Assembly (NCBI GenBank): GCA_018812715.1
Contig: JAHJCT010000017.1
Span: 204,019-268,018, forward strand
Source: Candidatus Micrarchaeota archaeon
GTDB taxonomy: Archaea > Micrarchaeota > Micrarchaeia > Anstonellales > Bilamarchaeaceae
Length of the DNA: 64,000 bases
Reading direction: 5' to 3'
A model generated the notes under the pieces. It made no database searches and was not told the DNA's origin. It worked only from the letters and a program-made list of their open reading frames with translations. This document shows positions 6,422-47,294 of the stretch, in pieces. The translations under genes were made by a program, and so were the position numbers. How positions within the stretch are numbered: position 1 is the first letter of the stretch; every line of letters begins with the position of its first letter.

Positions 6422-6688
6422 TTATCCTACCCCCAAAAATTTCTCATATTCTTTGTGGTCGCCAATAAAATAAAATTTCCGAGTTTTTATTCTTTCTTCT
6501 GAAACAAAAAGCACACGATATTGCCCGATCTCATCAACAAAGAATTCAAGACCATATTTTTCATGTCTAAAGCCATGCGTAGGGAATATTTTATATTTGT
6601 CTCTACGTTTCATAAATCTCTTTTGGATATCTGGCGGAAGCTTGTCAAAATAATTTTTCCAGGCTTCATCATATTCAAGGATGTACAT
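6422..6688 (-). CDS. RelE/ParE-family type II toxin-like protein
   Basis: 88 aa. The C-terminal pattern GQYRVLFVSEERIKTRKFYFIGDHKEY resembles the RelE/ParE core. It lies 9 nt downstream of a small partner ORF. Confidence 0.55.
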   Translation of the reverse strand: MYILEYDEAWKNYFDKLPPDIQKRFMKRRDKYKIFPTHGFRHEKYGLEFFVDEIGQYRVLFVSEERIKTRKFYFIGDHKEYEKFLGVG

Positions 6689-6697
6689 TTATCTCAT

Positions 6698-6922
6698 CTA
6701 TAAAAGATGTTGATATTTACCTGTAAATTCTTCATCGCCAATTGTTTTCCTTTTTCCTTTTTTTGCTTCTTCATGAAGTTCTTTAAGTACTTTTATTGCC
6801 TTTTTATCTTCAAGTGGCCTTACTCCCAACCTTTCATGAACTTCCTCTTCTAAGTAATTGATAATATCTCTGCATTTAAGTAGTTCTTCATACTCTTGCT
6901 TAGATATTTTGATATACTCCAT
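6698..6922 (-). CDS. putative antitoxin partner (74 aa, charged helical protein)
   Basis: Small ORF immediately upstream of the RelE-like gene on the same strand. No family recognised. Confidence 0.35.
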   Translation of the reverse strand: MEYIKISKQEYEELLKCRDIINYLEEEVHERLGVRPLEDKKAIKVLKELHEEAKKGKRKTIGDEEFTGKYQHLL

Positions 6923-6967
6923 TTTATTTCACAGTTATATTATGATTCAGCTCTTTAAAAATCATTA

Positions 6968-14500: not shown

Positions 14501-17097
14501 GCTTGTTCATATTCTCTTAAATTTCCACTAAAAGCCGCTTCTCTAAGTTCTTCAAGATCACTTCTTAAGCTATGCAATGGATAATCTCTGGCTATTGTTA
14601 AATCGCGCTCCCCATGACTTCTTTCATAACCTCTTATCTGTTCAGCAGTAACATATGCTGGAAATGTTCCATCCTCATTTCTTTCACCGAGTGGAATTTG
14701 TCCGGCTTCTACACCTTCTGCTATCGGCTCTCTTCCCCAGTAAATACCTGTTAATCTGTTATAATCAGCAATAAGCATTTCTGTTTGTACGATTCTTCTT
14801 GTTCCTCTATCAAACTGTTGTGCAGCTGCATAATGCTCTTCATCTGTTCCTGCATGCATTTCCATTTCTATTGCTTCAAGCATTATCCTTCTGCCTCTTC
14901 TGTATCCATATGGCACTTCTTCAGTTCCTTCTCGAATCATGCGTTCATGAGTAAATAGTTCATATCTCCAGCCTTCCTCTCTTCCTCCTTCAGCTGCACC
15001 ATAATAATCTCTTATATATTGCAGCAATAGATTTGCTCCCCGATAATCTCCAGCTTCGACTCTTTCTCTTACAATTCCTAATGCTTCATTTATTGTTGTT
15101 CTCCCAACTCCTCTTCTTTGTGCAAATGTCTCCAATCTGTTTGCTTCTGCTTCTATGTAAACTATCTGCGCTAAGTTGAAGCTTTCCATGAAGGCACCAT
15201 CATCACCTGGTTCGCCTTGTGCCATAGCCTGCAATTGTGTCTCCATTCCACTTAGGTGTATTGCATTTTCATCCGTAATTCTGGTGACTCTTCCATTGCT
15301 TACTACTCCAAGCCTTTGCACAGAATCAACATACATTGCAAGAAGTGTAAGTACTCTTGCTGCTTCTTGTGCATTCCCTTGTCTTGCAAGTTCTTCTGCA
15401 CGTTCAAGTGTTTGATTTACTATCCCTATCTGGAAAGTCATTCTTCTTGAACTCCAGTTTTCAATCAGTTCTCTGAATTGATCTGTTTCTCCTCTAACCT
15501 GGTGGTAAATCATTCCTATATTGAACTGCTCACTGGCATCTTCTCCTGCCATTTCACTTTGAAGTGCTTGTTCTATTGTTTCGCGTCCTTCCCAATCCCC
15601 CCAGCGATGCCCTTCATTTCTGTCATAATAAAATGAAATCATGTAAAGTAATCTTCTTGCTCCTTCGAAATCACCAAGCTTGAATCTTTCATCTGCAATG
15701 GCTGCTGCATTTCTGATAAGTTCTCTTCTCTCTTGCCCTCTTCTTCCTGTAATTGCTTGGAACCCTTCAATATCTACAAGCATGTGTGCCATGTCCATTT
15801 CAGTTGAATACTGTGCAAGCATTGATGAAGTAGGGCTTCTTCCTTCAATTATTATATTATATATTGTCTGATAACTCGGCAGATAATCTACTGCATGCCT
15901 ATCTAATTGTCTTGCAGACCGTTCAAGCAATCCTAAAGAAATGGCAAGTGCTGCAAGATTTCTATCTCCTCTTTGCAGTGCATCAAGTGCCTGTTGACCA
16001 TACCATTCCGGACTTTCTTCTGTTACTCTTCCTGTTCCACGTAAACTAGTAGCAATCATAGTCAGGTTTGCATCTCTTTCTTCTTCGCTTAATGGCATCT
16101 CTCTTCCAATTGTCATGAAATAGCTGGTTGTAATTCTTTCAAATTCCAACTGACCAATTATTTGTCCTTGTTCAAGTCTTCTGATTATTTCATCTAGTTC
16201 ATGCCTGAGATTTTCCATTTGCTGTCTCATCTGTTCATTTGTCTGTTGTTCTATTGCAAGTGCTATCTCATCTCTCCATTGGCTGAAGACTGTTGTGTTT
16301 ATCTCAGTCCATTGGTCCTTTATTGTTCCTATATTAGCTTCAAAAGACCAAAGCGATTGTCTATCTTCATGTTCCTGTTCACTAGTATACCCAATCCTTT
16401 GCCTCCCCTGGTTTCCTCTCTCCACTATAAAACCAAAGAGTGCATTTCTTTCCATTTCTACAGCTGAATTGTCGATATTGTAAATAGGAATATTCTCAAC
16501 GTACAATCTCCCTGCTTTTAGTACTGCCTCTGCTCTGCCGTGATTTGTTGTTGCAATATCTAATACAGAAGCTTCCAGGCTATCAAAAATAGTTTCAAGT
16601 GCATCTTCTGATTCCACGCCAGGAATCTGAATATTTTCAGGCATGCCCCCCGTTAGCATATGTAATTCTATATCAAATACATCTCCGACTGTTCTGAGCA
16701 TTGCCCTTGATCTTGTTATCATGTGGAATGATGCAGCAATGTTTCCTTCTCCACCAGTTGTTCTTGCATCATTTAATATCTGCTGAACTAAATCGAGTTC
16801 ATCCGTATACCTTTCTCCAAGTATTGGCAGTGCAGTTACTCTTAATCTCACTTGTTCCAATGTTTCTTCTGTTCTTTCTACTTCTGAATTAATGTATTCA
16901 ATAGTTGCATCATCAGGCCTGACAGTTAAGGTTCGCGCATGATCCTGGAGTGCACTAATCTCTCCAAGCACTTCATCCAATCCCTGTTCTAATTCTCTTC
17001 TTTGTTCATCCATTGCTTCTATTCTTGTTGGAATGATTGCAATTGGTAATCGTGTAATCTCCTCCTCTTCAGGTCTTTCTATTGTTGTTCCTCCCAT
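8533..17097 (-). CDS. giant protein B (2854 aa), unknown function, with a central multi-pass hydrophobic block and a conserved C-terminal domain
   Basis: Uninterrupted 8.5-kb ORF with ATG at 17097 and a strong SD. Helical TPR-like repeats (GDYRGANLLLQYIRDYY, GDFEGARRLLYMISFYY, GRFQEAEEAYEAAIDH). About 5 hydrophobic helices around aa 1235-1400. Trp-rich segment AIAWYVIGNYAWDNVLLPWY. C-terminal YRLLTS...YGLTVSGEGE domain shared with the 1463-aa protein. Confidence 0.9.
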   Translation of the reverse strand: MGGTTIERPEEEEITRLPIAIIPTRIEAMDEQRRELEQGLDEVLGEISALQDHARTLTVRPDDATIEYINSEVERTEETLEQVRLRVTALPILGERYTDELDLVQQILNDARTTGGEGNIAASFHMITRSRAMLRTVGDVFDIELHMLTGGMPENIQIPGVESEDALETIFDSLEASVLDIATTNHGRAEAVLKAGRLYVENIPIYNIDNSAVEMERNALFGFIVERGNQGRQRIGYTSEQEHEDRQSLWSFEANIGTIKDQWTEINTTVFSQWRDEIALAIEQQTNEQMRQQMENLRHELDEIIRRLEQGQIIGQLEFERITTSYFMTIGREMPLSEEERDANLTMIATSLRGTGRVTEESPEWYGQQALDALQRGDRNLAALAISLGLLERSARQLDRHAVDYLPSYQTIYNIIIEGRSPTSSMLAQYSTEMDMAHMLVDIEGFQAITGRRGQERRELIRNAAAIADERFKLGDFEGARRLLYMISFYYDRNEGHRWGDWEGRETIEQALQSEMAGEDASEQFNIGMIYHQVRGETDQFRELIENWSSRRMTFQIGIVNQTLERAEELARQGNAQEAARVLTLLAMYVDSVQRLGVVSNGRVTRITDENAIHLSGMETQLQAMAQGEPGDDGAFMESFNLAQIVYIEAEANRLETFAQRRGVGRTTINEALGIVRERVEAGDYRGANLLLQYIRDYYGAAEGGREEGWRYELFTHERMIREGTEEVPYGYRRGRRIMLEAIEMEMHAGTDEEHYAAAQQFDRGTRRIVQTEMLIADYNRLTGIYWGREPIAEGVEAGQIPLGERNEDGTFPAYVTAEQIRGYERSHGERDLTIARDYPLHSLRSDLEELREAAFSGNLREYEQASETYWNRLSLIATRVHRRSTVVDAEVILRQGNDALTEAFRAYVINMCGGGTTGERAWQTAWDYGHDVGAFTTTSNGLSLMADYIEQHPETFGAVSDLEMGRLRQVIYLSTEVDALLTQMDGIEYTTDDLPIYGEGLRGGTVMSYLLELVQGESRAAMAYSQIGQQIEVNDEYLRMIRIGGGDRFSLAEDNLRDCNTDLQRAQNLILEGRFQEAEEAYEAAIDHRITAMASYEGRSAMNLTATGIENFLEGAERLGEAIFFPEDFAEFMRSEPDRSYWDAYREMQTDSMHYILFGRGGSGSQERMQLDLNGARIVEASIFAIPADSGSQMFAEYAVDQGNVYALVGMGRFDDANAIIDRMQERVADHQFWTTVGLTAVGVVACLVPGGQLFGGSLFATMAFDQIVTEYRVQGEASWTSWLMFGGIIATMGIGGLAGVLRTEAQFAQGTAYATRMTQVVRALNYTNIGIGVGFSGYMGYHAVDAFSEGNMREGIFLTAMAAFPWAHMAGSRGWQAMRARPVRGTTEARTETELVAEEIRAPEPREVPIEIEPNEIPSVREAQRLRTPEEMFEFMRELRSEDPTVRDGAQARLRTLPEEVQGRIMQFMETGSIGNTSFMHVPEALVTGEMTPLARGNMTSVIDMIFRGPEPPTPGPRGGRPVTEVESTGTLQPGRLDWLLEGLLTPEGTTARENVVHRAAAQQTLENIRAENPEVAEIIDGLIRNPSVRHYFETGEATPFSQRALENARSQIEAMFEPEAVAMAVNDYNYYIEDVVASEMARRPHLVEGEGPMMIRQMPEVRAMAEEGGARPPGVQQGGIGPVDTTVGGGQGGGGGPVRPIPEVRWGRFERMYRFGRERWQNWRSDRVERNARAELPEAEEVLSTTGEGVRNTLDMVLDPELAQLEISRARTRATELEVRVEELREGGARPEEIRVAEQEAQTARTEAVELENLLNSSPQRIADIMKSLYDTAQTARGETSGYWNLLRRIYSRPNVRAQLETLAETDPVLRDILNRTGRTIESGARNAGISPEDYMAVQAREGFSANDVEVMIRAIEAQRGELAPLLRTQELLGIEYTPLERASLLPRLEGSDIIPPQMLVRELAGVQNSVEGRIREIPIADEPVTNVIRRTLLERSSQGGNVNDVLTEILRSPEVERAVRERYGREAAEIYRDAVQNNRTVDEILNVLEQGRAVEGAEPQFVPREMRTPLEGFVRNISQDPAFAQEFSAINALRPRINQVLDQASTAADVFARDTRPLRDDAINIGWRILRFLNNWEPLTNWGARRFVNSIRNAVPGGRIRAGLRNSPYLIPQAIAWYVIGNYAWDNVLLPWYNSLNSAGSVEEGRRLCERDFGNLCAGASDEDLEWLATEEGRRFFFHMPNALPRGRDRRPGNVEDLNQLLQRTDILIEPRRLGEIVADGREMGGRLDDINDLLSDMRRGDAEDRREAELAAILEPWGLTVDDVQGILSQERKEEVDITDLFDLRIPQWRERGLVIDFRDAVADAFCVDTGLISEGEAESGRYTREGGQRVDFLTSNTDVFAYLWEAVQGGHIPSVYLDNIMNDLTSEGRITELRQQVTSERDIYQVLEAHLRSQNLYIEVIEEDGTVTGIRQNSFLGLLDVRASLDPGFRDTYEQLLNQYRENNEALLAFNAFNIEDIRYGEENRVIGGDAIYGNPQELAALILESETPGEAVEAARQRGFVGSAVLGYMEPRLFDPENAHLVTFIAERSDEERLGFVRWLLDHRDNIRGHVLEIIEDASQHSTVPGPGRYTEIYEYLDRRATVYRSNGWWDGATPAEEQAREERERSRGTVTREETVEPVGEEFEAQYVRRPGFEVMTPRREDQIDVEEVHAPPATLSPEAQRFYANEESTLTPLLDGTIDRMIEARNDDGTLTEDAQAMVNAYGPEINSEDAETRERARDVVRADIKAEMYRLLTSTIDRDMQLREGYGLTVSGEGEGLSVEVDRRTARNGLRNHIMQYVSRRGER

Positions 17098-17511: not shown

Positions 17512-20500
17512 TTATTCATTTTCTCTGCCTACAAAGCTCAGAGTGTGTCTCTCTATGCCTCTTCTGGCTCTTCCCATATCTGTTATTTGAACAGCGAACT
17601 CTTCGCCTTCACCACTTACAGTGAGTCCATAGTCAGTACGGTGCTGTACGTCCCTTCGTATATCACTTGTAAGAAGTCTATACCACTCTGCTCTTATTGC
17701 CATTTCAGTTTGTTCTCTGTTCCCTTCAAATGCACTTCTTAGCAATTGACCGTCTTCTCCTTCATCAGTGAAGAGCCTTTCCAGGGTTCCGTCCAACATG
17801 CTGTTAAAGTCATTTTCAATAGTATAGAACTGTTGAGCCTCAGCGTTCAATTCTGTACCACTTCTCTCAGTTCCAGTTCCTCTAAATCTTTCTACTTCAT
17901 TGATGTATCCTGTATCAACAGCCCACTGTACACGAACACCTTGTGGATCTGAGAATGGATTATAGTCAGATACATTTCCACCATCTGCTTTGTGCCTTTG
18001 CAGTTCTTCAACAAATTCTTCAAGACGGTATCTGTTGAGTCTGTATCGTGCACCTCTGGTATCGACAAAGCTTGTCAGGAGCTCTCTTATATCCTGGTTT
18101 GTTGGCGCAAGAAGAGTGTATGCCATGCTATCTGAAATATCAAATTCAGAAAGTTCTCTTCTTAACTCCCTTCTTGCATATTGTTCAGAGGTATCTTCAA
18201 CCCATCCATTTGTTCTTGCAGTTGCCATTGCTTCATTGAATGTTTCTTCTAACATTACATCAGTTACAGGAACACGTCTTGTTTGCAATGTTTGTCCTTC
18301 CCCAGCTCTTGCTTGTGTTTTTTCTTCCCAAAGAGTAACAAATGCTTCTCTATTTTCTGGTTTGAGGTACTCGGTATGCTCTCCCCTTTCAGCCACTAAT
18401 GGAAGCATAAGTCTTCCTACTCTATCTCTTCCTTGTGCAAAGACAAAATCCACTAATCCAAGATCTGCTATATTATAATTATCCATTACTCTTTCTTGTT
18501 GCTCAGATACGAGGAATCCTCTTTCTACCCATTGCCTTGTATGTTCATTCATATAGTCATAGTCAACTGTTGCCCTCGTTCCCTCTTGTGCCATTAAATA
18601 ATCAACAAATTCATTTGTCATATTCCTGTTGAGTTTAAGGCCATCGGTTATCACAGTATATTCTACATCGATTATACAACAGAACTGATTTCCTGATTCC
18701 CATTCATCTTCAATTGCTAGTGGTTCCCAGTTTTCTACATCATCCATACTTTCAATACCAAGTTCTCTGCATGAATTAGGTATTACTAATCCCGGTGTTG
18801 CTGGAGGCCTTTCAACTGCTTCTCCTGTTCCCTCGGCTACTTCATTAGTTCCTTCAGCTACCTCGCCAGTTCCTTCTGCATTTTCTTCTCTAGGCGGAGG
18901 TTGTGCTCTAGAGGTAGAACCTGCACTTGTTTCCTGAGAACAATTAGCTATGTCATCATCATCCAGTTCGTTTACATCTCTAACATGTTTCAATGTTCTT
19001 CTCTCTTGGAAGAATGTAAGAACACCTTCATTATCATGTTCAACTTGATTATCCCTTAGCCAGTCTAATCTTTCCTCACCTGTAACTCCATATGCAGTTG
19101 TGTAATAACTATCCTCTCTTTCTGCAAGTCGTTCTGGAATGTCGTAACTATCATTTATCATTCTCTTATTTGAGAGCTCACCTTGCATCGGAGACCACCA
19201 TTCCCAAGGTGCTCGGTCGAAGTGGTTTCCAAAATGATTAAAGCTCCAACGCCATGGCATCGCATTCCATGAGAATGGATTGTACCAATGACCTGTAGTT
19301 GATGTACCAATGCGATAGGTCCAAGGTTTGTACCATGCTCCGTTTGGTGTTGTTGTCATCCATTCATTTGGTGATGTGAACCATGCAACACCAAAAGATC
19401 CTATCAAGTATGCTTTGAGTGCTCCTTTCCAAAGTCCCCTCAACCATCTCGGGTAATGTTGGTATGTGTGAGCCTTTCCTGTAATTGGATTTCTACCAAC
19501 AACTTGCTTATTCCAATTTCGTTTCTTAAGATCATCAACTGTTTCTCCAAAGCCCCAACTTGAAAGTCTTCTAAGACGCCCACCTCTAAAATTACCTTGT
19601 GACTTTCCTATCCATGCTTCGCTTGTAAATAATCTCCAGAACCATTTATCTTTGAACTTTTGCCATTTTCCTACAGTTACTTTTGGAGACGGATCCCAGC
19701 TTTCTTTTGTAGCTTCCCAGATCGTTCTTGCTATAACAAATTGACCTTGAGGTATTTCACCTAAGTTTTCAGCAGTTCTTTTATGAAGCATTTCAACTGA
19801 TTTTTCAGCTGCTTTTCCTAATGGCTTGGAATACTTATTTTCTATTTTTACCAGCATCTCTTCTAATGAAGCACGAGGATACTTTCTAGTTTCTATTGCC
19901 TTTACAACTGTCAGCATTCTTTTTCTTACTTCATCAGGCAATTCTGCTCCTTCTACTTTTGTTCTTAATGCAGTTGCTTTTGTATCAAATGCTTCAAGCT
20001 TATATCTGAAAAGTTCTTCGCTTTCACCTTTACCTTTTCGTTCTTGTATCACTGCATCATATTCTGCTTTAGTAATACTTCTTGCTCTAAGCAGTTCATC
20101 CAATTGTTCTGCAGTTTTTGTTCTCAATCCTTGTTCTGTTGAAGGAATACCAAACAATTGCTGGCAGTCGTCCATACGATCAAGAACTTTCTTTGTATCT
20201 TTCATCAATTCACTGATAACTGGATTGCCTAGCCACTCTCCTGCTCTATTTGGAAGTTCATGAATTAATTCTGTACTCACTTCTCTGCAGTCAAGCATAT
20301 GCTTTTTGAAGTTTTCAGAGTATGTCCGTACTACATTTTCAAATCTGCCATTTTCAGTTCCTTGTATTCCACCTAATTCTGCTGAAAGTGTATCAAATAT
20401 TTCTTTTGCTTGAGTATACTCGTCCTCTATTCTCGCCCCCCTAGCAGACAAACTCAGTCCACGGGTATTAAATTCACTAATTCGCTGTCTTGCAATTACT

Positions 20501-21903
20501 AATTCTTGTTCTGCAGTATCCTTCTCTTCAGTAGCTTTTCTTTCTGCATCCTCAATCTGTTTTTGTGTTGCTTTTGCCTTTCCTTCTGCAACAAGCTGTT
20601 TTAGTTTTACAACTTTATCATACTGTTCTGTTTTTTCTACAACAGTTGCTTCGGCTCGTTCAACCAGTCTCTCTGCATCTGCCCTTTCGTTTCTAAATTC
20701 TGAAATTTCGTCATCTATTGCATCTACTCTTGCTGCACTTTCTTCCATGACGCTTTCAGCAGCAGCTCTCCGTACCATCATGTCTTCAACAGTTTGTCGT
20801 TGGCTTGGTCTGCATGGTCCAAATCCTTCAACATCAACAAAATGACCTGTTCCTGGAATACCTAGCCCTTCAACTGTCTCATTTGTAGGTGTTAAAAGAA
20901 TTGCACGAACGAATTGCCTGAAATTATCTGCAGCCATATCTATTGCTATAGATGTTCTTGATTCAAGATAAGCATCCACATAACTTCCATCAAGTACACG
21001 ACGATTAGTTTCTTGAGTATTCTCCGAGTCCATGCTTCTGGTCCCAGAAAGTTGCTTTAAAACACTACCTATGAATTCTCCTTCTTTTCCTGGGCTGAGT
21101 CTTTGTGCGACATTTTCAAGAAATCTAAAGAATGCGTCTGGAGGTAACGCTACTCCTTCTGGCCATGTTTCATGAGTCCACAATGATTCATATAATTTAT
21201 CTCCCCTTTCATCTCTTACACAATTTCCTTGTTCATCTTCTTGCTCAATCGGATTCCCCTTATCATCTAATTTAAATCTAGATCCGATCATTTGCGAATA
21301 AATAATATCAATTCTATCAGCATCAAAATCTTCGACTCTTCCTTCACTTAACTCTTGAGCAAGTCTTTGCCTTACGGCATACATTCTTTCTGCATACGCA
21401 GTATCAAGTTCTTCAAGCGGTGTCGGCACCGTCGGTTTCTTCAACCCATCAATAAATTCTTTTCTGCATACAATCTCTCTTATAAGCATATCAAAGCCAG
21501 AACTTGTCCTGCCCTGTCCTCTTCGTATTGCATCTACCAATTCTAATGTAAATTTAGTCAAATACTCTGCATTTGCTGTATCAGCACCGCTTTGCGGGGT
21601 TCCTCCGGCACCATGCCGTGTATCTTTATCTTGCCCTCGTTCTCCTCTCAGTTCTTTTAATCTTTCTTCTTTAGCAAATTCAATTCTTGCGTCTTTATCT
21701 GCTCTTTTTCGAGCTTTATGATCTTTTCTTAATTCAGGACTTAATGCAGCCCCCAGAACGGGCACTCTCTCTGCCATATATTTGTAACTCTTTGCAGAGC
21801 GACTTTCTCCACCTCTTGCCCAATCAAATACTCTTTGCCTTATACCAGCTTTCTCAGCCTGTTTATCTCTTCCCTGAGCCCTATCTATAACACTACCCGT
21901 CAT
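17512..21903 (-). CDS. giant protein C (1463 aa), unknown function, with coiled-coil N-terminal part, extremely Trp-rich segment and conserved C-terminal domain
   Basis: ATG at 21903 with GGAGG 12 nt upstream. About 18 Trp in ~150 aa (KWQKFKDKWFWRLF...PWRWSFNHFGNHFDRAPWEWW). C-terminal AEWYRLLTSDIRRDVQHRTDYGLTVSGEGE matches protein B. Confidence 0.9.
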   Translation of the reverse strand: MTGSVIDRAQGRDKQAEKAGIRQRVFDWARGGESRSAKSYKYMAERVPVLGAALSPELRKDHKARKRADKDARIEFAKEERLKELRGERGQDKDTRHGAGGTPQSGADTANAEYLTKFTLELVDAIRRGQGRTSSGFDMLIREIVCRKEFIDGLKKPTVPTPLEELDTAYAERMYAVRQRLAQELSEGRVEDFDADRIDIIYSQMIGSRFKLDDKGNPIEQEDEQGNCVRDERGDKLYESLWTHETWPEGVALPPDAFFRFLENVAQRLSPGKEGEFIGSVLKQLSGTRSMDSENTQETNRRVLDGSYVDAYLESRTSIAIDMAADNFRQFVRAILLTPTNETVEGLGIPGTGHFVDVEGFGPCRPSQRQTVEDMMVRRAAAESVMEESAARVDAIDDEISEFRNERADAERLVERAEATVVEKTEQYDKVVKLKQLVAEGKAKATQKQIEDAERKATEEKDTAEQELVIARQRISEFNTRGLSLSARGARIEDEYTQAKEIFDTLSAELGGIQGTENGRFENVVRTYSENFKKHMLDCREVSTELIHELPNRAGEWLGNPVISELMKDTKKVLDRMDDCQQLFGIPSTEQGLRTKTAEQLDELLRARSITKAEYDAVIQERKGKGESEELFRYKLEAFDTKATALRTKVEGAELPDEVRKRMLTVVKAIETRKYPRASLEEMLVKIENKYSKPLGKAAEKSVEMLHKRTAENLGEIPQGQFVIARTIWEATKESWDPSPKVTVGKWQKFKDKWFWRLFTSEAWIGKSQGNFRGGRLRRLSSWGFGETVDDLKKRNWNKQVVGRNPITGKAHTYQHYPRWLRGLWKGALKAYLIGSFGVAWFTSPNEWMTTTPNGAWYKPWTYRIGTSTTGHWYNPFSWNAMPWRWSFNHFGNHFDRAPWEWWSPMQGELSNKRMINDSYDIPERLAEREDSYYTTAYGVTGEERLDWLRDNQVEHDNEGVLTFFQERRTLKHVRDVNELDDDDIANCSQETSAGSTSRAQPPPREENAEGTGEVAEGTNEVAEGTGEAVERPPATPGLVIPNSCRELGIESMDDVENWEPLAIEDEWESGNQFCCIIDVEYTVITDGLKLNRNMTNEFVDYLMAQEGTRATVDYDYMNEHTRQWVERGFLVSEQQERVMDNYNIADLGLVDFVFAQGRDRVGRLMLPLVAERGEHTEYLKPENREAFVTLWEEKTQARAGEGQTLQTRRVPVTDVMLEETFNEAMATARTNGWVEDTSEQYARRELRRELSEFDISDSMAYTLLAPTNQDIRELLTSFVDTRGARYRLNRYRLEEFVEELQRHKADGGNVSDYNPFSDPQGVRVQWAVDTGYINEVERFRGTGTERSGTELNAEAQQFYTIENDFNSMLDGTLERLFTDEGEDGQLLRSAFEGNREQTEMAIRAEWYRLLTSDIRRDVQHRTDYGLTVSGEGEEFAVQITDMGRARRGIERHTLSFVGRENE
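18820..18882 (-). repeat. three tandem 21-bp units encoding (V)AEGTxE heptads inside giant protein C
   Basis: Plus-strand units ttctcctgttccctcggctac / ttcattagttccttcagctac / ctcgccagttccttctgcatt. Protein reads AEGTGEVAEGTNEVAEGTGEA. Confidence 0.7.
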
Positions 21904-33862: not shown

Positions 33863-34425
33863 AGCTTGTAGTTATTGAGGGTATAGACGGCTGCGGGAAG
33901 GAGACTCAGATAAAACTCCTAAAAGAAAAGTTCCCTAACGCAGTTGTATTCAAATACCCAACGAAACGCTATTCTTTACTCAATGACTATCTTGAAAAAA
34001 AAGCTGAATTAAACCCAAAAGCCCTTTTCCTTTTATTTCTCTCAGATATAGCCAATGAGCAGAAAAAAGTAAAAAAAACCCTTGAAGATGACAAACTTGT
34101 AATTCTGGATCGCTATGTTTTCTCAACTATTGCCTATGAAATTAATGGCATCTCTTACAAACAAGGAAAAAAAATTGTCGAAGATTGTGATTTTCTAAAA
34201 CCCGACATGGTTCTTCTCCTTGATATAACCTCAGAAACTTCACAAAGTCGTAAGAAAAAGCAAAAACAGCTCGATCGTTATGAAGAAAATGCAGAATACC
34301 TCGAACAAGTAAGATCAAATTTTTTGAAACTCTCTGAAGAAAGGTTTTTAACACCTAATTGGCACAGAATTGACGCTAGCAAGGATATAAATTCAATCCA
34401 TGCAGAAATAATGAAACTTCTTTAG
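33859..34425 (+). CDS. tmk: thymidylate kinase
   Basis: MKLVVIEGIDGCGKETQ P-loop and DRY motif (LDRYVFS). ATGA overlap with the upstream surface-protein gene. Confidence 0.85.
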   Translation: MKLVVIEGIDGCGKETQIKLLKEKFPNAVVFKYPTKRYSLLNDYLEKKAELNPKALFLLFLSDIANEQKKVKKTLEDDKLVILDRYVFSTIAYEINGISYKQGKKIVEDCDFLKPDMVLLLDITSETSQSRKKKQKQLDRYEENAEYLEQVRSNFLKLSEERFLTPNWHRIDASKDINSIHAEIMKLL

Positions 34426-34609
34426 CTGCGTTCGTCTAGTCCGGCCAAGGATAGTGGACTTTCACAAACTTTTTGAAAAACAGCAAAGAACTTTGTTCTT
34501 TGTGCCCCATGAAAACCATTCGGTTTTCATTCGGGAAGTTTGATCAAAAACCAAATCTCGAAAAGTTTGAAGAACTCCATTGACCTGGGTTCGAATCCCA
34601 GACGCAGCA
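34425..34609 (+). tRNA. tRNA-Glu(UUC) interrupted by a 110-nt intron at the canonical 37/38 position
   Basis: Acceptor GCUGCGU/ACGCAGC+A. D-loop AGUCCGGCCAA typical of tRNA-Glu. Anticodon arm GUGGA-CUUUCAC-UCCAU after splicing. T-arm CUGGG-UUCGAAU-CCCAG. Exons 34425-34464 and 34575-34609. A T-run follows. Confidence 0.85.
34465..34574 (+). other. tRNA intron with canonical helix-bulge-helix-bulge-helix splice motif
   Basis: 3-nt bulges CAC and AAC are separated by 4 bp (CUUU/GAAG). These are flanked by the anticodon stem and an 8-bp intron helix AAACUUUU/AAAAGUUU. Internal hairpins are CAAAGAAC-UUU-GUUCUUUG and AUGAAAACC-AUU-CGGUUUUCAU. Confidence 0.75.
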
Positions 34610-36251: not shown

Positions 36252-36296
36252 CTTGAAAATAAATTTTCAAGATCAGCCAACTTTGCATAAGCAAAG
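36252..36296. terminator. two AT-rich perfect hairpins between convergent transcription units
   Basis: cttgaaaat-aa-attttcaag (36252-36271) and ctttgc-ataa-gcaaag (36281-36296), bracketed by the direct repeat agtgggctttc (36239-36249 and 36295-36305). Confidence 0.35.
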
Positions 36297-36548
36297 TGGG
36301 CTTTCCAGTTAGCCTTGACATGAATATAAGGAGCCAATATCCGCTACTCAATCCTGGATCTTATAAGCACGGAACGATACATTTAGGGCTGCTTCTTCCG
36401 ATCTGACCCGGTTCATATATAATCCCGCCACATAAGGCAGGACGTCAACGCTTAAGATACTGGGCATACATCCACGGCAAAACGCCCCAGACCTTCGAGT
36501 CGCCTAAGGGGATTTGCGATGCCGGGACCCCTAGCCCCGCTCTAGCCC
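36290..36548 (-). ncRNA. signal recognition particle RNA (7S/SRP RNA); 3' end uncertain (36235-36330)
   Basis: ORF-free GC-rich island. The minus strand starts GGGCUAGAGCGGGGCUAGGGGUCCC with two 5' hairpins. It has a helix-6-like UCCUGCC-UUAUGU-GGCGGGA. It has the helix-8 signature CCGGGUCAGAUCGGAAGAAGCAGCCC (compare the universal GGUCAGGUCCGGAAGGAAGCAGCC). Confidence 0.7.
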
Positions 36549-36569
36549 ATTATTATAACGAAATTCTCC

Positions 36570-41400: not shown

Positions 41401-42369
41401 ATGCGAAAAATGTCAAATCTAGAGTATTCATTTATAGTCAAAGAACTTTCTTCTTTACTTGGTAAGCACTTCTCAAAAATACGCAAAATGAACGAGGATA
41501 CCTATCGTATGAAAATAGGAAACATTGAAATTCTTTGTCAATTAGGCGTCCGCATCCACAAAACTAAATATATAGAAGAACCAGAACCACATGACAAATT
41601 TGTACAAAAATTAGAAAAAGAACTTGTAAATGCAAAGCTTCTCTCAATAGAACAACTAAACAACGATCGCATTATTTCATTCAATTTTGATAAAGGAAAT
41701 CTAGTTTTTGAAATGTTTGGAAAAGGCAACATTATCCTGTTGAAAGATGAAAAAATCATCTGTGCTTATAAAAATGAAAAATGGGCAGACAGGGAAATTA
41801 AGGTTGGCCTTGGTTACTCCCCACCAAAGAAGCCTTCAGATGAAATCGAAGTTTCAGATCGATATATCATAGTATCATTGACAAAACTTCCTCTGGGAAA
41901 GGAGTATGCACTTGAAGTACTGGCAAGATTGGGAATAGATGAAAAAACACCTGGAAACAAACTTAACACAGAACAACTTTCTAAACTTGAAAAAGAAATT
42001 GAAAAAATCAAAAAAAGCTGCCAGCCCTGCATGTTCATTCAAGATGGAAGACCATTTGATTTCTCACTTACAGAACTATCCTCTTATTCAACCCACGAAT
42101 CTAAGAAATTCCAATCTCTCAGTGAGGCAATTGATGAGTTTTATTATGCACGTGAAGCACCAAATGAACAACTTGAAAAACTGAAAAAAAGACTAGAAAA
42201 ACAGAAAGAAAGATTGGAATCTTTGAAAGGGGAAGAAAAAGAAAATCGGCAGAAAGGCGATCTGATATATGAAAATTACAGTAAAGTAGAAGAAAGTATA
42301 AAAGCTGCCAAAGCGGATAAAATTAAAAATTTAAATAAAAAAGAAAAATCAGTTGAAACCGACCTTTAG
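41401..42369 (+). CDS. NFACT-N (FbpA/Rqc2 N-terminal) domain protein with coiled-coil tail; short form
   Basis: N-term LEYSFIVKELSSLLGKHFSKI...RIISFNFDKGNLVFEMFGKGNIILL matches the NFACT-N pattern. At 322 aa it appears to lack the C-terminal half of typical archaeal homologues. Confidence 0.5.
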   Translation: MRKMSNLEYSFIVKELSSLLGKHFSKIRKMNEDTYRMKIGNIEILCQLGVRIHKTKYIEEPEPHDKFVQKLEKELVNAKLLSIEQLNNDRIISFNFDKGNLVFEMFGKGNIILLKDEKIICAYKNEKWADREIKVGLGYSPPKKPSDEIEVSDRYIIVSLTKLPLGKEYALEVLARLGIDEKTPGNKLNTEQLSKLEKEIEKIKKSCQPCMFIQDGRPFDFSLTELSSYSTHESKKFQSLSEAIDEFYYAREAPNEQLEKLKKRLEKQKERLESLKGEEKENRQKGDLIYENYSKVEESIKAAKADKIKNLNKKEKSVETDL

Positions 42370-42773
42370 TATACTGATTCATTAGCCAATAAATTATCCT
42401 TCAGAATCAGTGCTGTTTTTCTTGGGTTGTCCACCATCAATGACAGTACTGTTGTTTTACCATCTTTAGAAATCATGTGGACATTTTGTATATTCACTCC
42501 CTCTTTTGACAGTGAACTAGTTATTCTGTTTAATTCTCCTGGTTTGTCGTCAAGTTTTACTACAACTGAATTAAGTTCTTCAACCTTGAATCCTGCGGAT
42601 TCAAGTACTTCTTTTCCTTTTTCTGCATCGGAAAGAGTCAAAGTAATAATTCCTTTTCCTGAAATGACATCAGCACTTATCGATTCAATATTTACTTTTT
42701 CTTTTGCTAAGACATATGAAATATCTGCCAAAAGACCTACTTTATCATTTGATACTATAGTTATAGTTCTCAT
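42366..42773 (-). CDS. tandem ACT domain protein
   Basis: Two DKVGLLADIS / DKPGELNRITS beta-alpha-beta-beta-alpha-beta units. ATG at 42773. Confidence 0.65.
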   Translation of the reverse strand: MRTITIVSNDKVGLLADISYVLAKEKVNIESISADVISGKGIITLTLSDAEKGKEVLESAGFKVEELNSVVVKLDDKPGELNRITSSLSKEGVNIQNVHMISKDGKTTVLSLMVDNPRKTALILKDNLLANESVY

Positions 42774-42784
42774 ACAACCACCTC

Positions 42785-43081
42785 TCACAATCTATAAATT
42801 TGGACATAAGGAATTTTATTTATATACATAATTTCTTCTTTATCTATTATATCCATAGAAATAGCAATACTTACACATCTACTCCCAACTAAATTAGCAG
42901 AATCAAATTCTTTTAAAGCACTTTTAACGTCGTCATCTCCTGCTCTTTCTCCAATGTAAAATGCCCTATGCCTGTCAAGATCCATATACACAGTTCCATC
43001 ATCAAGAACCTTTCCAATTAGTTCTTTATCACAAATAGCAACTATGCGTCCTGTTTGAGTTTCGTGTATCTTCAAATACAT
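42785..43081 (-). CDS. DUF424 family protein
   Basis: MYLKIHETQTGRIVAICDKELIGKVL...FYIGE pattern. Confidence 0.5.
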   Translation of the reverse strand: MYLKIHETQTGRIVAICDKELIGKVLDDGTVYMDLDRHRAFYIGERAGDDDVKSALKEFDSANLVGSRCVSIAISMDIIDKEEIMYINKIPYVQIYRL

Positions 43082-43103: not shown

Positions 43104-44213
43104 TTATCTGCTTTTGCAATAGTGCAAAGCCAATGCTTTATATGCATCTTTCCATTCTTTGATGCTTTTCATTCCTACATGTTCATTGGATCGATGAATT
43201 ACTTTGTTACCATTTTCATCATAACCAGTTGGTCCCATGCTAATAGTCGGAATGTTTTTCTCTGTGAAAAAATGCCCGTCACAGCCGCCCAATTTAATTC
43301 TAAGCTCTAACTTCCTTTCAAGTACTCTCTCTGCTACTTCTTTTGCATTTACAACTAATTCGTGATCTGGAGCAGTATACATTCCCTTAATCTTCATACT
43401 TATTTCAACTTTTGATTTTTCATCCATGAGACTCTCAAGATACTTCACAACGTTTTCCATATCTTCATTCACTGGCACTCTAATATCAAGTCCAAAGTAA
43501 CACTCTTCAGGTATTACATTGATTGTTTCTCCACCTCTGAAAAGTCCAATATTGCATGTTTTTAGATTAACTGATTCATCTCTAGTTGCTTTCAATATCA
43601 GTATTTTATCTTCAGCTATTTTGTTGATGATACGAATTGCTCTAAGAACAGCACTATCACCTGCATAAAGGCGTGACCCGTGTGCTCGTTTTCCAAATGT
43701 TTTTACATCTGCCCGAACAAGGCCTTTGTGCGCATATGCAATTCCTTCTCCACTTGGTTCCCCAATTACCATTCTTTTTGCATACAATCCTCTTTCTATA
43801 AGAGTCCTTGTTCCATGCTCTCCTCCTTTTTCTTCATCCCCAACAACCTGCAGAATTACCTTTCTCGAAAGATCCTCTTCAGCAAGTTCTAAGTATGCTA
43901 CAAGCATAGCTGCTAATCCGCCTTTCATATCAGTGGCTCCTAACCCGTAAAGCTCTCCACCTTTTATCACAGGTTCAAGCGGATCCGTTTCCCACCCAGT
44001 TCCTGGCGGCACAGTGTCATAATGTCCATTAAATCCTATCTCTGCCTCCCCTTCTCCAATGGTAGCATGTATATTCTTCACACCATTTGATTCAATTATT
44101 GACATTTCTATTCCAGATGTTTCAAGAAGTTCCTTTATGTAGAAAAACGGCCCATCTGCTCCATCATAACTTTTAAGCGCTATAAGGTCTTGAGTTATTT
44201 TTACTGGATCCAT
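43104..44213 (-). CDS. M20 family metallopeptidase (ArgE/DapE/LysK-like deacylase)
   Basis: GHYDTVPPG and GLGATDMKGGLAAM motifs. The ATG shares one base with the upstream TGA (TGATG). Confidence 0.75.
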   Translation of the reverse strand: MDPVKITQDLIALKSYDGADGPFFYIKELLETSGIEMSIIESNGVKNIHATIGEGEAEIGFNGHYDTVPPGTGWETDPLEPVIKGGELYGLGATDMKGGLAAMLVAYLELAEEDLSRKVILQVVGDEEKGGEHGTRTLIERGLYAKRMVIGEPSGEGIAYAHKGLVRADVKTFGKRAHGSRLYAGDSAVLRAIRIINKIAEDKILILKATRDESVNLKTCNIGLFRGGETINVIPEECYFGLDIRVPVNEDMENVVKYLESLMDEKSKVEISMKIKGMYTAPDHELVVNAKEVAERVLERKLELRIKLGGCDGHFFTEKNIPTISMGPTGYDENGNKVIHRSNEHVGMKSIKEWKDAYKALALHYCKSR

Positions 44214-44869
44214 CAAATCAAACCTGCAATAGAATTCAATATCAAAATGCCAAACATACTAACTACTACAAAGAAAAGAAAAATATTTGCTAATTTCATA
44301 AGTTCGAATACATCTTCTACTGATTTCTTTGTTTGCCCCAGTGTTTCTCTTTGGGATTGTACTCCGTCTTTTATATCGCCGATGTCTTCTCCCAATTCAT
44401 TTACTGTTGTTTTTTGCTCTTCAAATGCGGATACTGTTTCATTTAATTCCTGTGCCGATTCTTTTAATGATTCTGCAGCTTCCATATACTCTTCTTCAGG
44501 CATATCTACTCCAAGGCCTTCAATTCCAGATAATATCTCGCCAGTGCTGTTCAATGCATCTGCAGTTGATTGCAGCCCTTCTGAAAGTGGTTCTATCGAT
44601 TCCTGAAGAGATTCAAGTGCAGTGTCAGTAGAATTTAGCCCGCCTTCCAATGTTTCAAGTGTTTCTTCCATTTCAATCATATTTTGTCTTGCTTCTTCAA
44701 GATTGTTCAAAAGAGAGTTTTTGGTTTTGTCCATTGCATCGTTTATGATGAATACCAATACCAACAAGATAAAGCAACCTATAAATGCAATCGCCAATGA
44801 TGCTGCACGAAGAGGTTTTTTCAAATGTTCTAGTTTGAATTCATCCTCTTCAGATTTCTTTTTGGCCAT
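44213..44869 (-). CDS. membrane protein with two TM helices flanking a coiled-coil ectodomain, unknown function
   Basis: TM at aa ~20-45 and C-terminal FLFFVVVSMFGILILNSIAGL. Confidence 0.5.
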   Translation of the reverse strand: MAKKKSEEDEFKLEHLKKPLRAASLAIAFIGCFILLVLVFIINDAMDKTKNSLLNNLEEARQNMIEMEETLETLEGGLNSTDTALESLQESIEPLSEGLQSTADALNSTGEILSGIEGLGVDMPEEEYMEAAESLKESAQELNETVSAFEEQKTTVNELGEDIGDIKDGVQSQRETLGQTKKSVEDVFELMKLANIFLFFVVVSMFGILILNSIAGLI

Positions 44870-44927: not shown

Positions 44928-45039
44928 AATGCAGGAGGCGCTTGAATCGAGCTTCATTACAGTCAGTTTTTTGCCTCACTTTTCAAGGATCAGTTTTTTG
45001 GTTCTTTTTTCCTAAAAAAGAACAATGCAGGAGGAAGGA
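44928..45039 (+). repeat. direct repeat copy 1 (core 44951-45039) flanking the VapBC cassette
   Basis: The 89-bp core is 88/89 identical to 45812-45900. It contains a perfect 10-bp hairpin gttctttttt-cct-aaaaaagaac and starts and ends with AATGCAGGAGG. Confidence 0.85.
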
Positions 45040-45087
45040 CATTCGTAATTAGTACAGTGCAGACCCCCGAAATCTCGAGGACAGAGT

Positions 45088-45507
45088 TTATAACTTCTGC
45101 CCCAGCATTTCAATGAGTTCTTTTGTTGTGAGAACCTTTACCCCTTTCTGTTTCTTGAAGTGTTTATCATCACTCCAAATAGGAGCTTTGGTTGCCAAAG
45201 CTGCCGCAATGAACGGGACATCAGCTGAATCTATTTTTTCCATTATCCCCTTTGCTTCTCCCATGTATATAACAATTATTTTATCGTCTAGAATAGTCAT
45301 TTTTGAAAAAAGCTTGTTCAGAATCATCTCGAGATCTGTTTCTGATATTTTTGCTTTCTTGAGAATCTCCTTCTTATGATTGCCTAGTTCTTCCATTGAA
45401 AAGCCAATCGTAATGAGTTCTCCATCGAAATGGGTGATGATTTTCCTGGAAACCCCATCTCGCACTAGGGCAGCGATGATTCTGTTGGTATCTACAACAA
45501 GCCTCAT
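45088..45507 (-). CDS. vapC: PIN domain ribonuclease (VapC-like toxin)
   Basis: MRLVVDTNRIIAAL start and a late SDDKHF acidic motif. 4-nt overlap with the upstream antitoxin gene. Confidence 0.7.
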   Translation of the reverse strand: MRLVVDTNRIIAALVRDGVSRKIITHFDGELITIGFSMEELGNHKKEILKKAKISETDLEMILNKLFSKMTILDDKIIVIYMGEAKGIMEKIDSADVPFIAAALATKAPIWSDDKHFKKQKGVKVLTTKELIEMLGQKL

Positions 45508-45725
45508 TTTGAGAACCTTTTTCTCATTTTAGCTTTTACGTCATGGCCTATTCTCTCGGCATCTTCTTCAGTCATCTTACTGTTCTTCAGAACTTCGTCC
45601 ATCCAATGCAGCTCTCTAATTTTCTTCTCGAAAGCCTGTCTGGCCACGTCGCTCCATTTGAGCTCTGAATGGGCAATCATCTCTTTGTAGAGTTCTTCTG
45701 GAATCGAAAGCGTCATGTTAACCAT
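45504..45725 (-). CDS. vapB: VapB-like antitoxin (RHH-type N-terminus)
   Basis: MTLSIPEELYKEM beta-strand/helix start. Coupled to the PIN gene. Confidence 0.5.
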   Translation of the reverse strand: MVNMTLSIPEELYKEMIAHSELKWSDVARQAFEKKIRELHWMDEVLKNSKMTEEDAERIGHDVKAKMRKRFSK

Positions 45726-45786
45726 AATCTCACCTATTTGTATTATGTGCTAACACATATTTAAAGCTTTGCTACAAAAATGAGAA

Positions 45787-45900
45787 AATGCAAGAAAGGC
45801 ACTCGAAGCAAGCTTCATTACAGTCAGTTTTTTGCCTCACTTTTCAAGAATCAGTTTTTTGGTTCTTTTTTCCTAAAAAAGAACAATGCAGGAGGAAGGA
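45787..45900 (+). repeat. direct repeat copy 2 (core 45812-45900)
   Basis: See copy 1. The upstream extension is more diverged (aatgcaagaaaggcactcgaagca versus aatgcaggaggcgcttgaatcga). Confidence 0.85.
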
Positions 45901-46177
45901 TTGACGGCACTATTTTAGAGCACCAGTTTTTGGTGCAGCTTTCTAAAAAGGTGCATTCGAACCTTCGAAGGCGCGTAGCCCATGTGCCTTTTAGTAAAAG
46001 GCACCCCAAAACGGGGAGTTACATGTTAAGCCAGCAGATTTCCCAAACCGCAATTGGAAAAGGAAAATAACGCGACTATTTACGACCTTGTTTGTTGTTC
46101 CTCAGGCCTTTTTCCAGGGTTTTTGGCCGTGGAATGGCAGAGGTCAAAAGGCCCCTTGAGTCTGCCACGTTTGACCG
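45901..46177 (-). ncRNA. candidate structured ncRNA of unknown class (strand and ends uncertain)
   Basis: Locally GC-rich and has no credible ORF. Perfect hairpins at 45920-45936, 45984-46004, 46004-46016 and 46105-46128. Two interleaved perfect 7-bp helices at 46135-46176 suggest a pseudoknot. A promoter-like repeat lies immediately upstream on the minus strand. Confidence 0.3.
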
Positions 46178-46241
46178 CTTCGCTACTCCTGCAGAAACTT
46201 TCCTTAGATGAAACAATTGTTAAAGTTTCATCAAACTTCCT
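46178..46241. repeat. 64-bp perfect direct repeat, copy a
   Basis: cttcgctactcctgcagaaactttccttagatgaaacaattgttaaagtttcatcaaacttcct is identical to 46295-46358. Contains the 8-bp inverted repeat gatgaaac/gtttcatc. Confidence 0.9.
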
Positions 46242-46294
46242 GAGTTTTCCTCAGGATTGGAGTTGCGAATCGTGAACGGATTGCCGTTCAGGTA

Positions 46295-46358
46295 CTTCGC
46301 TACTCCTGCAGAAACTTTCCTTAGATGAAACAATTGTTAAAGTTTCATCAAACTTCCT
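46295..46358. repeat. 64-bp perfect direct repeat, copy b (period 117 bp)
   Basis: Identical to copy a. The 53-bp spacer carries two perfect 6-bp hairpins (cctgag-ttttc-ctcagg and gaacgg-attg-ccgttc). Confidence 0.9.
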
Positions 46359-46373
46359 AAGAAAAAATAAAAG
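46359..46373 (-). terminator. oligo-T stretch after the ferredoxin gene
   Basis: The minus strand reads CTTTTATTTTTTCTT directly after the stop codon. Confidence 0.4.
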
Positions 46374-46658: not shown

Positions 46659-47240
46659 TCATTTTCTTGCGAAAACAAGATAAGCTGTATGCATAAGACC
46701 AAAATGCTTGGGTCTGAATCCTCGCTCTCTTGCCTCATATTCTCTTACAATTCCTTCTATTGTAAACACTTCACTAAAAACCCCTTCAGCAGCAATATGG
46801 AGTGCTTTTGCCTGTTCTGCATGCAAACAATGTGCTGCCAAATATCCATTCTTCTTCAGTGCCTTGTCTGCCATTTCAACTACTTTTTCTGCTTCTGCTA
46901 TATCACAAAAAACAAGATCCCAGGACCCATCGTTTTCATCTATTCCCTCCAGTACATCTTTATGCCTGAAAGTAACATTTTTCAATCCGCTGCGCTCAAC
47001 ATTTTTCTGTGCAAGGGCTAAAAATTCATCTCGTTTCTCATAACTTACGACTTCTTTAACAATATTGGCCAGTTGGACTGTCATAAAGCCTGTCCCTGAA
47101 CCAAGTTCAATTACTTTTGATTCTTTGCCAATGCCAGTATACCCAATTATCAATCCTGCATCCTTTGGTTGTGTTACTGCTGGGCCTCCTCTTTTCAATT
47201 TTGTCAATAATGCAGGAAAATGAAATTCAGTTTTCTTCAT
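46659..47240 (-). CDS. trmI: SAM-dependent tRNA (adenine-N1) methyltransferase, TrmI/Gcd14-like
   Basis: VIELGSGTGFMT motif I and a C-terminal ...RPKHFGLMHTAYLVFARK typical of TrmI. Confidence 0.65.
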   Translation of the reverse strand: MKKTEFHFPALLTKLKRGGPAVTQPKDAGLIIGYTGIGKESKVIELGSGTGFMTVQLANIVKEVVSYEKRDEFLALAQKNVERSGLKNVTFRHKDVLEGIDENDGSWDLVFCDIAEAEKVVEMADKALKKNGYLAAHCLHAEQAKALHIAAEGVFSEVFTIEGIVREYEARERGFRPKHFGLMHTAYLVFARK

Positions 47241-47287
47241 AGAAACTTTCCTCCGGCCATTCTCATGTTAAAGTTTCATCAAACTTC
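47241..47287. repeat. third, partial copy of the 64-bp repeat in the trmI 5' region
   Basis: agaaactttcct and gttaaagtttcatcaaacttc are identical to the repeat with the same 14-nt spacing, and only the central 14 nt differ. On the minus strand it abuts the trmI ATG. Confidence 0.7.
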
Positions 47288-47294
47288 TTAAGGT

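Follow-up and report, generated by a model that had tools for sequence, protein, structure and literature searches.

We examined a 64,000-nt stretch of DNA (the window) from a Candidatus Micrarchaeota archaeon (assembly GCA_018812715.1, contig JAHJCT010000017.1, positions 204,019 to 268,018), in which a vapBC toxin–antitoxin (TA) operon lies between two long and nearly identical direct repeats at 44928–45900. The repeats are built from the 3′ end of a tRNA-Leu gene that a default tRNA search passes over, and the vapBC unit is probably a miniature element that integrated there. Coordinates refer to the window unless another locus is named; loci used for comparison carry labels of the form L001.

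The repeats and the module between them

The two core repeats (44951–45039 and 45812–45900) agree at 88 of 89 bases, the single mismatch and the spacing of 861 nt being re-derived with the values given in the original prediction. None of 100 dinucleotide shuffles produced a comparable repeat pair. Ungapped extension lengthens the match to 104 nt at 95% identity (44936–45039 and 45797–45900, start-to-start spacing again 861), and past this a weaker similarity (~75%), also noted before, reaches 44928 and 45787. Repeat identity falls abruptly, from 99% to ~75%, over the last 25 nt. A perfect hairpin, GTTCTTTTTT-CCT-AAAAAAGAAC, is present in each copy at 45001–45023 and 45862–45884. The motif AATGCAGGAGG, which is the reverse complement of CCTCCTGCATT, has exact copies at 44928, 45024 and 45885 and a degenerate copy, AATGCAAGAAAGG, at 45787. 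All that had been said of the motif at the unit ends and of the hairpin in each core was correct. No other copy of the repeat unit was found in the 64-kb window.

Between the repeats, by gene content, are vapB and vapC only, both on the minus strand. The vapC toxin gene (45088–45507) encodes 139 aa with a PIN_2 domain (PF10130; 97.2 bits against a cut-off of 22.4, E 1.2e-27). A protein identical to the window VapC is on record from a Candidatus Micrarchaeota metagenome-assembled genome. The collections contained no near-identical contig, the closest VapC besides the window's own being 89% identical, and an exact look-up of the window VapC in the contig index gave no match. The vapB antitoxin gene (45504–45725; 73 aa) overlaps vapC by the 4 nt ATGA. 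VapB is assigned to its family through homologues at 88–93% identity, whose precomputed annotation is RHH_12 (PF26688); its direct family matches are a weak one to NCBIfam VapB (E 0.006) and none in the local Pfam copy. The promoter (45744–45765, minus strand) consists of a TATA box, TTTAAATA (45758–45765), abutting a palindrome, TATGTGTTAGCACATA (45744–45759; TATGTG-TTAG-CACATA), that is a putative VapB operator. Behind vapC, the 3′ tail of the cassette (45040–45087, minus strand) includes CTGTACTAATTAC (45045–45057), which is one arm of the inverted repeats that flank the core in L001 and L004.

The module is ~0.77 kb long and has its own promoter. The proposal that the repeats enclose exactly one operon of PIN toxin and antitoxin with a promoter stands. 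Across loci, homology of the module extends from CAAAGCTTTAAATATG at the left edge to the core at the right edge. The repeat-bounded region does not stand out in GC content. As in other type II VapBC systems, the putative antitoxin gene is upstream, it overlaps the PIN toxin gene by 4 nt, and the promoter carries a palindrome as for autoregulation. Nothing unusual was detected in the proteins, with the difference that the antitoxin family rests here on homologue annotation. In such a system VapB would repress its operon via the TATA-box palindrome, and VapC would act as a PIN-domain RNase toxin.

A tRNA-Leu(CAA) gene with four predicted exons

The 470-nt ‘non-coding’ stretch between the Fer2 gene and the repeat is occupied by a tRNA-Leu(CAA) gene (45887–46192, minus strand) with three intervening sequences of 115, 52 and 55 nt. 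Its predicted exons are 46192–46155, 46039–46027, 45974–45955/6 and 45900/45899–45887, and the inserts lie in the anticodon loop (37/38), in the variable arm and in the T-loop (59/60 or 60/61). Removing the inserts in silico leaves a perfect 84-nt tRNA-Leu(CAA) cloverleaf. Archaeal tRNA genes may hold up to three introns, and tRNAs of Micrarchaeum with introns at 59/60 have been described (PMC3239211).

Because of the three intervening sequences, ARAGORN in a default run on the window missed this gene and found no tRNA at all. Rfam at gathering thresholds reports nothing at the locus; at relaxed E-values only chance-level matches appear (Atu_Ti4, SNORD57), far below gathering scores. Orthologues support the assignment. 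With introns allowed, ARAGORN predicts a tRNA with the same ends at the orthologous site in L006 (as Leu(CAA)) and in L012 (with the anticodon mis-assigned). In the same mode it calls a tRNA-Leu(TAA) in L001, and this tRNA and that of L006 both end ...GGTTCGA(A/T)TCC(T/C)(T/C)CCTCCTGCA; in these two loci CCTCCTGCATT also ends ...GGTTCGAATCCTTCCTCCTGCA, a T-arm followed by the 3′ strand of the acceptor. The anticodon stem covaries, with GCAGA/TCTGC in the window and ACAGA/TCTGT in L006. The motif AATGCAGGAGG is the 3′ acceptor strand of tRNA-Leu(CAA), read on the opposite strand.

A second intron-containing tRNA gene, tRNA-Glu(TTC) with a 110-nt intron (34425–34609, plus strand), is likewise detected by ARAGORN only with introns allowed. 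Upstream of the tRNA-Leu gene, its promoter region and first 15 nt (GCAGGAGTAGCGAAG) are duplicated 117 nt away at 99% identity (46178–46244 and 46295–46361, minus strand). The upstream copy runs on into a rod-like hairpin, TACCTGAACGGCAATCCGTTCACGATTCGCAACTCC, and both the duplicate and the hairpin are conserved in L012 (7397–7450) with loop changes. The duplicate may represent a small RNA, or else what is left of a tRNA 5′ end. Upstream of the methyltransferase gene, at 47226–47292, the promoter part occurs a third time in a weaker copy.

Composition of the repeat

Read along the tRNA strand, the repeat begins at 45900, the first base 3′ of the T-loop insert, with the last exon of the tRNA, TCCTTCCTCCTGCA; TT follows, then the hairpin and then two CAAAAAACTG runs. 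We call the stretch that follows the tRNA core (TT, hairpin and T/A-runs) unit A. Direct comparison gives a proximal copy on the tRNA gene (45797–45900, minus strand), with the last exon followed by unit A, and a distal copy (44936–45039, minus strand), in which the tRNA 3′-end core stands behind vapBC and is again followed by unit A; the cassette tail that precedes the distal copy is conserved in L001 and L004. The last-exon sequence, first present at 45900–45887, has its second copy at 45039–45026. An att-like core (att, attachment site), TCCTTCCTCCTGCATT, is found on the genuine tRNA (45885–45900, minus strand), with the same 3′ end on the tRNA-Leu of L006, L008, L009 and L012, and once more at the 3′ end of the vapBC module (45024–45039, minus strand), where it can be compared with the module ends of relatives given below.

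Each unit A ends in a further tRNA-like motif. At the end of the proximal unit, 15 nt ahead of the vapBC module, this is the degenerate tRNA-3′-end-like GCCTTTCTTGCATT (45787–45800, minus strand). At the end of the distal unit it is the pseudo-core GCGCCTCCTGCATT (44928–44941, minus strand), with a T-loop-like TCGATTCAAGC before it; this pseudo-core appears to be an older tRNA 3′-end remnant. An equivalent pseudo-core, GGTTCAAGCGCTCCTGCA, lies in L009, 118 nt past its distal core. The order on the minus strand is therefore tRNA, core, A, pseudo-core, then promoter, vapB, vapC and tail, then core, A, pseudo-core and the promoter of a gene for a 218-aa protein.

The first ~55 nt of unit A are conserved in relatives, where they follow the real tRNA directly in L008 and a distal core in L009 and L006. 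The hairpin is conserved at the same places, behind the tRNA-Leu core of L008 and the distal cores of L006 and L009, with compensatory changes at three base pairs (GTTC..GAAC versus AAAC..GTTT). Since unit A is conserved behind the tRNA and the cores of relatives, it is the native 3′ flank of the tRNA. In L008 it sits between the tRNA and a convergent gene for transcription factor B (TFB), and T6 runs are present on both strands; the hairpin with its T-runs is probably a bidirectional terminator. In the window the proximal hairpin (45862–45884), with its 10-bp stem and T6/A6 runs, lies directly 3′ of the tRNA, and the identical distal one (45001–45023) is placed to terminate the vapBC transcript, so that each copy would end one transcript, that of the tRNA or that of vapBC.

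The repeat is the 3′-terminal exon of tRNA-Leu(CAA) (T60–A73) with ~90 nt of its native 3′ flank. It had been proposed to be a repeated intergenic element; within the window it is confined to this locus, and it is the terminal exon and native terminator region of one tRNA gene. Because it carries the tRNA 3′ exon and flank, with one copy on the tRNA and one behind vapBC, the direct repeat has the attL/attR form that marks integration at the 3′ end of a tRNA gene.

The core and the module in related genomes

The same vapBC module is found in at least six contexts among related Micrarchaeota, and the tRNA-Leu core occurs at two isoacceptors, (TAA) and (CAA). In every locus of an initial set that encodes VapC relatives, CCTCCTGCATT stands just downstream of vapC. 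The module ends in CCTTCCTCCTGCA (or CCTCTCTCCTGCA) in L001, L004 and L021, in TTTCCTCCTGCA in L006 and in a truncated core in L023. The L001 copy lies at tRNA-Leu(TAA), and its direct repeat measures 16 nt. The clearest counterpart of the window is L021, where an intron-less tRNA-Leu(TAA) is followed by a vapBC-only insert; the cores are 873 nt apart and the direct repeat measures 13 nt. In L004 and L023 the module has a core on either side, with no tRNA in view; the cargo of L004 is a gene for a helix-turn-helix regulator, then a methyltransferase gene with vapBC. L012 has vapBC after the same tRNA as the window, and only the proximal, tRNA-borne core.

At L006 (GCA_016926175.1, JAFGPA010000004.1) four cores stand in series (3249, 5175, 6568 and 7616), and they set apart an ATPase_2/DUF234 gene, vapBC and a gene for a CPT-family kinase. 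Flank sequence downstream of two of the cores forms a 98-nt repeat at 89% identity (3338–3435 and 6625–6722), a duplicated segment comparable to the long repeat of the window. Genes for an IS200/IS605-type Y1 transposase and a reverse transcriptase follow the core series in this region (3249–9500).

In L001 and L004, inverted repeats of 13–14 nt lie just inside the cores, as ...CTGTACTAAGTAC-GGAGGACCTT-core on one side and core-T(T/A)TAGTACTTAGTACAG... on the other; we denote the arms CTGTACTAAKTAC. The attP reconstructed for each of these two loci is an imperfect palindrome around the core. Such arms would fit the binding of a recombinase around the crossover site.

By tblastn, the gene order in the window is PurE, methyltransferase, Fer2, tRNA-Leu, the variable interval, p98, p140 and an NFACT-domain protein, where p98 and p140 are ORFs (open reading frames) of 98 aa (42785–43081) and 140 aa (42366–42788). 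L008 and L009 share this order to the left and right of the interval (methyltransferase, Fer2 and tRNA; p98, p140 and NFACT) and are without vapBC. In L008 the order is tRNA, core, A and TFB, the TFB (TFIIB) gene (2258–3196) lying just outside the tRNA flank. In L009 a TFB gene (4693–5625) separates the true end of the tRNA from a displaced core that unit A follows. L006 and L012 are more distant by their housekeeping genes, yet carry vapBC after the same tRNA. In this clade of Micrarchaeota, the interval from tRNA-Leu to p98 is a variable hotspot of integration. The module's presence in other contexts, and its absence from two syntenic intervals, bear out the suggestion that the repeats delimit a discrete TA insertion. 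A simple local duplication had been named as the reading to adopt for a repeat that is unique to the locus and accompanies the TA genes in all relatives, no site being empty. The repeat is indeed unique to the locus, but relatives have both empty sites and sites with different cargo.

DNA identity of vapBC to the window is 84–88% (five loci), against 65–73% for methyltransferase, Fer2 and PurE in the syntenic relatives. A promoter stretch of 44–47 nt is 100% identical in L001, L002, L006 and L007; for L004 and L005 the figure is 97.8%. Conservation of vapBC above that of host genes would fit horizontal spread.

Two further observations concern the cargo of the interval. The TFB paralogue, a basal transcription factor, behaves like hotspot cargo in L008 and L009. 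In the window, 43104–44869 (minus strand) encodes the 218-aa protein, a coiled-coil membrane protein, and an M20 peptidase. These two genes, between the repeat and p98, are missing from the corresponding intervals of L008 and L009; they may also be variable hotspot cargo, and no further core was found beyond them.

Origin of the repeat-bounded unit

We consider it fairly probable that the vapBC unit is a decayed or miniature integrative element without an integrase, of the kind known as a CIME (cis-mobilizable element), at a tRNA-Leu hotspot. A small element with an attP-like copy of the tRNA-Leu 3′ end would have integrated at the tRNA-Leu gene and left attL/attR-type repeats, presumably by site-specific recombination at the core. 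Since the element contains no integrase, it would be a relic or be moved in trans, with the recombinase supplied by an incoming element or from elsewhere. The extra length of the repeat may reflect a second step. Two older paralogous units, each of A and a pseudo-core and ~75% identical in their last 25 nt, would have pre-existed, and a second, recent event from the identical core would have made the first ~94 nt of both units near-identical. This event could have been gene conversion, homologous recombination, or re-integration at the tRNA core of a circle excised with unit A. The original prediction that the cassette could be excised by recombination fits the structure, in which two direct repeats of 89–104 nt would allow loss of the 861-bp unit by homologous or site-specific recombination.

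Several observations weigh against this reading. No integrase was found in the 30 window ORFs compared with Pfam (nearly all ORFs of at least 180 aa) or among the genes called around nine related loci, and viral, plasmid and phage searches returned neither an integrase nor a parent element. Scans of viral contigs with core and hairpin, with cassette tail and core, with the T-arm and acceptor of tRNA-Leu and with the inverted-repeat arms gave nothing or unrelated matches; the unrelated ones, none with an integrase, are a phage tRNA array (L018), a match within a helicase ORF (L019, described below) and an ordinary tRNA-Leu by ParB-like and IstB-like genes (L020). Neither a reconstructed attP, compared with plasmids by BLAST, nor the whole unit, compared with phages, had a match. 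Repeat identity runs 73–88 nt past the tRNA into the native flank; a plain att crossover should duplicate only the core, ~14–16 nt, as in L001 and L021, and the sharp drop from 99% to ~75% points to homologous recombination or gene conversion. No strict bulge-helix-bulge giving the correct splice product was found for the 55-nt T-loop insert, and splicing of this insert is predicted. Some vapBC copies have no core beside them (L016, L024–27 and the distal side of L012). In L014 (GCA_964490215.1, GC-richer, VapC 73% identical to that of the window), vapBC is bracketed by a 59-nt direct repeat of 92% identity (7683–7741 and 8436–8494, spacing 753) that consists of the 3′ end, stop codon included, of an upstream 136-aa gene; it is an independent instance of vapBC between repeats, with a target other than a tRNA. 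The 3′ end of a protein gene is another known target type of archaeal integrated elements (PMC6563490).

In the viral contig IMGVR_UViG_3300018083_000050 (L019), a 22-nt match to T-arm and acceptor (10867–10888) lies inside an ORF for an SNF2-family helicase; it may be an attP or a chance match, ~0.4 matches being expected by a rough estimate.

The long identity past the tRNA and its abrupt end would come naturally from an origin through homology or replication alone, either a Campbell-type single crossover of vapBC DNA that carried flank homology or a local duplication or gene conversion, with no site-specific recombinase. The 98-nt flank repeat of L006, the 59-nt repeat of an unrelated target in L014 and the lack of an integrase among the 30 window ORFs scanned agree with such an origin. 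We nevertheless find it unlikely, because a short shared core, isoacceptor targets and inverted-repeat arms are not predicted by homology alone. The same 13–16-nt core ends the module at its 3′ side where the flank is unrelated (L001, L004, L021 and L023), two tRNA-Leu isoacceptors serve as targets with the core alone duplicated, and inverted-repeat arms surround the core. The serial cores with varied cargo in L006, L009 and L004 could also be taken for an integron-like platform on tRNA-Leu, at which a trans-acting recombinase inserts, excises and reshuffles promoter-bearing mini-cassettes (vapBC, a STAND-type ATPase, a kinase, TFB). The palindromic attP of L001 and L004 would suit this, as would the duplicated flank units of the window and L006, which are expected from re-integration of a multi-unit circle. 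Such a platform seems quite improbable to us. No recombinase was found in the searches above, the arrays are short (2–4 cores), each cassette has a promoter of its own, and an R/L box architecture of attC type is absent. Moreover, tandem accretion of decayed integrative elements gives the same pattern (PMC5704250, PMC6563490).

That the TA cassette was inserted in, or captured between, copies of a dispersed element resembling a miniature inverted-repeat transposable element or a repetitive extragenic palindrome was the earlier suggestion, and two near-identical copies with a perfect hairpin and a shared terminal motif would suit it. It is now very improbable. The terminal motif is the acceptor end of a tRNA, neither terminal inverted repeats nor a target-site duplication were seen, and the arrangement is the attL/attR-type signature described above. 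The dispersed copies of the 89-bp unit that this view calls for did not appear elsewhere in the 64 kb, and collection matches fall only at orthologous tRNA-Leu loci: the core with hairpin pattern was found in 1 of 185,579 species-representative genomes and on two metagenome contigs, all at the orthologous tRNA-Leu locus, and a genome-collection scan with a 35-mer of hairpin and motif gave 0 matches. The source is a metagenome-assembled genome, in which a mis-join could create a repeat, but an assembly artefact is barely credible here: the copies differ by one base, their extensions diverge, GC content is unremarkable across the repeat-bounded region, and analogous structures are present in independent assemblies (L006/L007, L001/L002/L003 and L021/L022).

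Two kinds of transposition were rejected as well. The hairpin ends of IS200/IS605 elements with Y1 transposases are ruled out, the Y1_Tnp gene of L006 lying outside the vapBC unit; to our knowledge this family makes no direct repeats of a tRNA end. A long target-site duplication, by transposition or by a Cas1-type integrase, would be out of range at 89–104 nt, and the target sequence here is always the same; the target-site duplications that we know of are far shorter.

Comparison with known elements

Archaeal integrated mobile genetic elements (iMGEs) insert at tRNA 3′ ends and are bounded by attL and attR repeats, as PMC6563490 relates with reference to She et al. and Williams 2002, and re-use of an integration site yields arrays (PMC6563490). 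The window shares the main features of this class. Its repeat holds the 3′-distal part of the tRNA, one copy lies on an intact tRNA, the tRNA is regenerated, and the old 3′ end with its native flank has come to lie beyond the insert. In relatives the site is unoccupied or has other cargo (L008 and L009), site re-use gives arrays, and the same core is found elsewhere (L001, L004, L006, L021 and L023). The window differs in that its element, at ~0.8 kb, lacks integrase, replication and virion genes, in that its repeat is 89–104 nt long when reported archaeal att sites span 8–69 bp, and in that the target tRNA is split by three inserts, the repeat starting exactly at the last exon.

Elements whose integrase has been lost while both attL and attR persist are known as CIMEs (PMC5704250). 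The window unit resembles them in being att-bounded, in lacking integration and transfer genes, in standing in tandem with other att-bounded units at one target and, by analogy, in possible mobilisation by a recombinase in trans or in cis. CIMEs are bacterial, however (Streptococcus and others), are usually several kb long and have been shown to derive from integrative and conjugative or integrative and mobilizable elements, whereas the host here is a DPANN archaeon, and viral, plasmid and phage searches gave no parent of the unit.

With integron cassettes the unit shares its small size, its single operon bounded by putative recombination sites, the serial arrangement, the frequent TA genes and an anchor beside which new units would enter. 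It differs from them in that no IntI was found in the window ORFs tested, in that the anchor is a tRNA gene and the sites are copies of a tRNA 3′ end, and in that the cassette has its own TATA box and putative operator. An attC site is an imperfect palindrome with R″/L″...L′/R′ boxes (RYYYAAC...GTTRRRY), and integron cassettes are usually promoterless. The hairpin was considered as an attC site and rejected, its arms GTTCTTT/AAAGAAC not fitting the consensus GTTRRRY/RYYYAAC.

Other features of the window

Two features lie apart from the locus. For the signal recognition particle (SRP) RNA at 36296–36550 (minus strand), the gathering score is reached only for the Rfam model Bacteria_large_SRP (65 bits) and not for the archaeal model. 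Two giant ORFs on the minus strand, 8533–17097 (2854 aa) and 17512–21903 (1463 aa), have an internal repeat in common, with 70% identity between the copies (8622–8718 and 17601–17697).

Implications

The analysis replaces an unexplained repeat by a concrete structure, an overlooked tRNA-Leu gene and an att-type duplication of its end. Intron-rich tRNAs of this kind conceal integration sites from routine annotation. That elements integrate at tRNA 3′ ends is a principle long established; what sets this case apart is a TA-only element without an integrase at two tRNA-Leu isoacceptors in DPANN archaea, the unusually long repeat and a target tRNA in four exons. These loci define a TA-only mini-element of ~0.8 kb that recurs at both isoacceptors across several genomes of Micrarchaeota and would move between them although it encodes no integrase. 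Little is known of the mobile elements of DPANN archaea, and the att core CCTTCCTCCTGCA, the cassette boundaries and the comparison loci are leads toward the recombinase.

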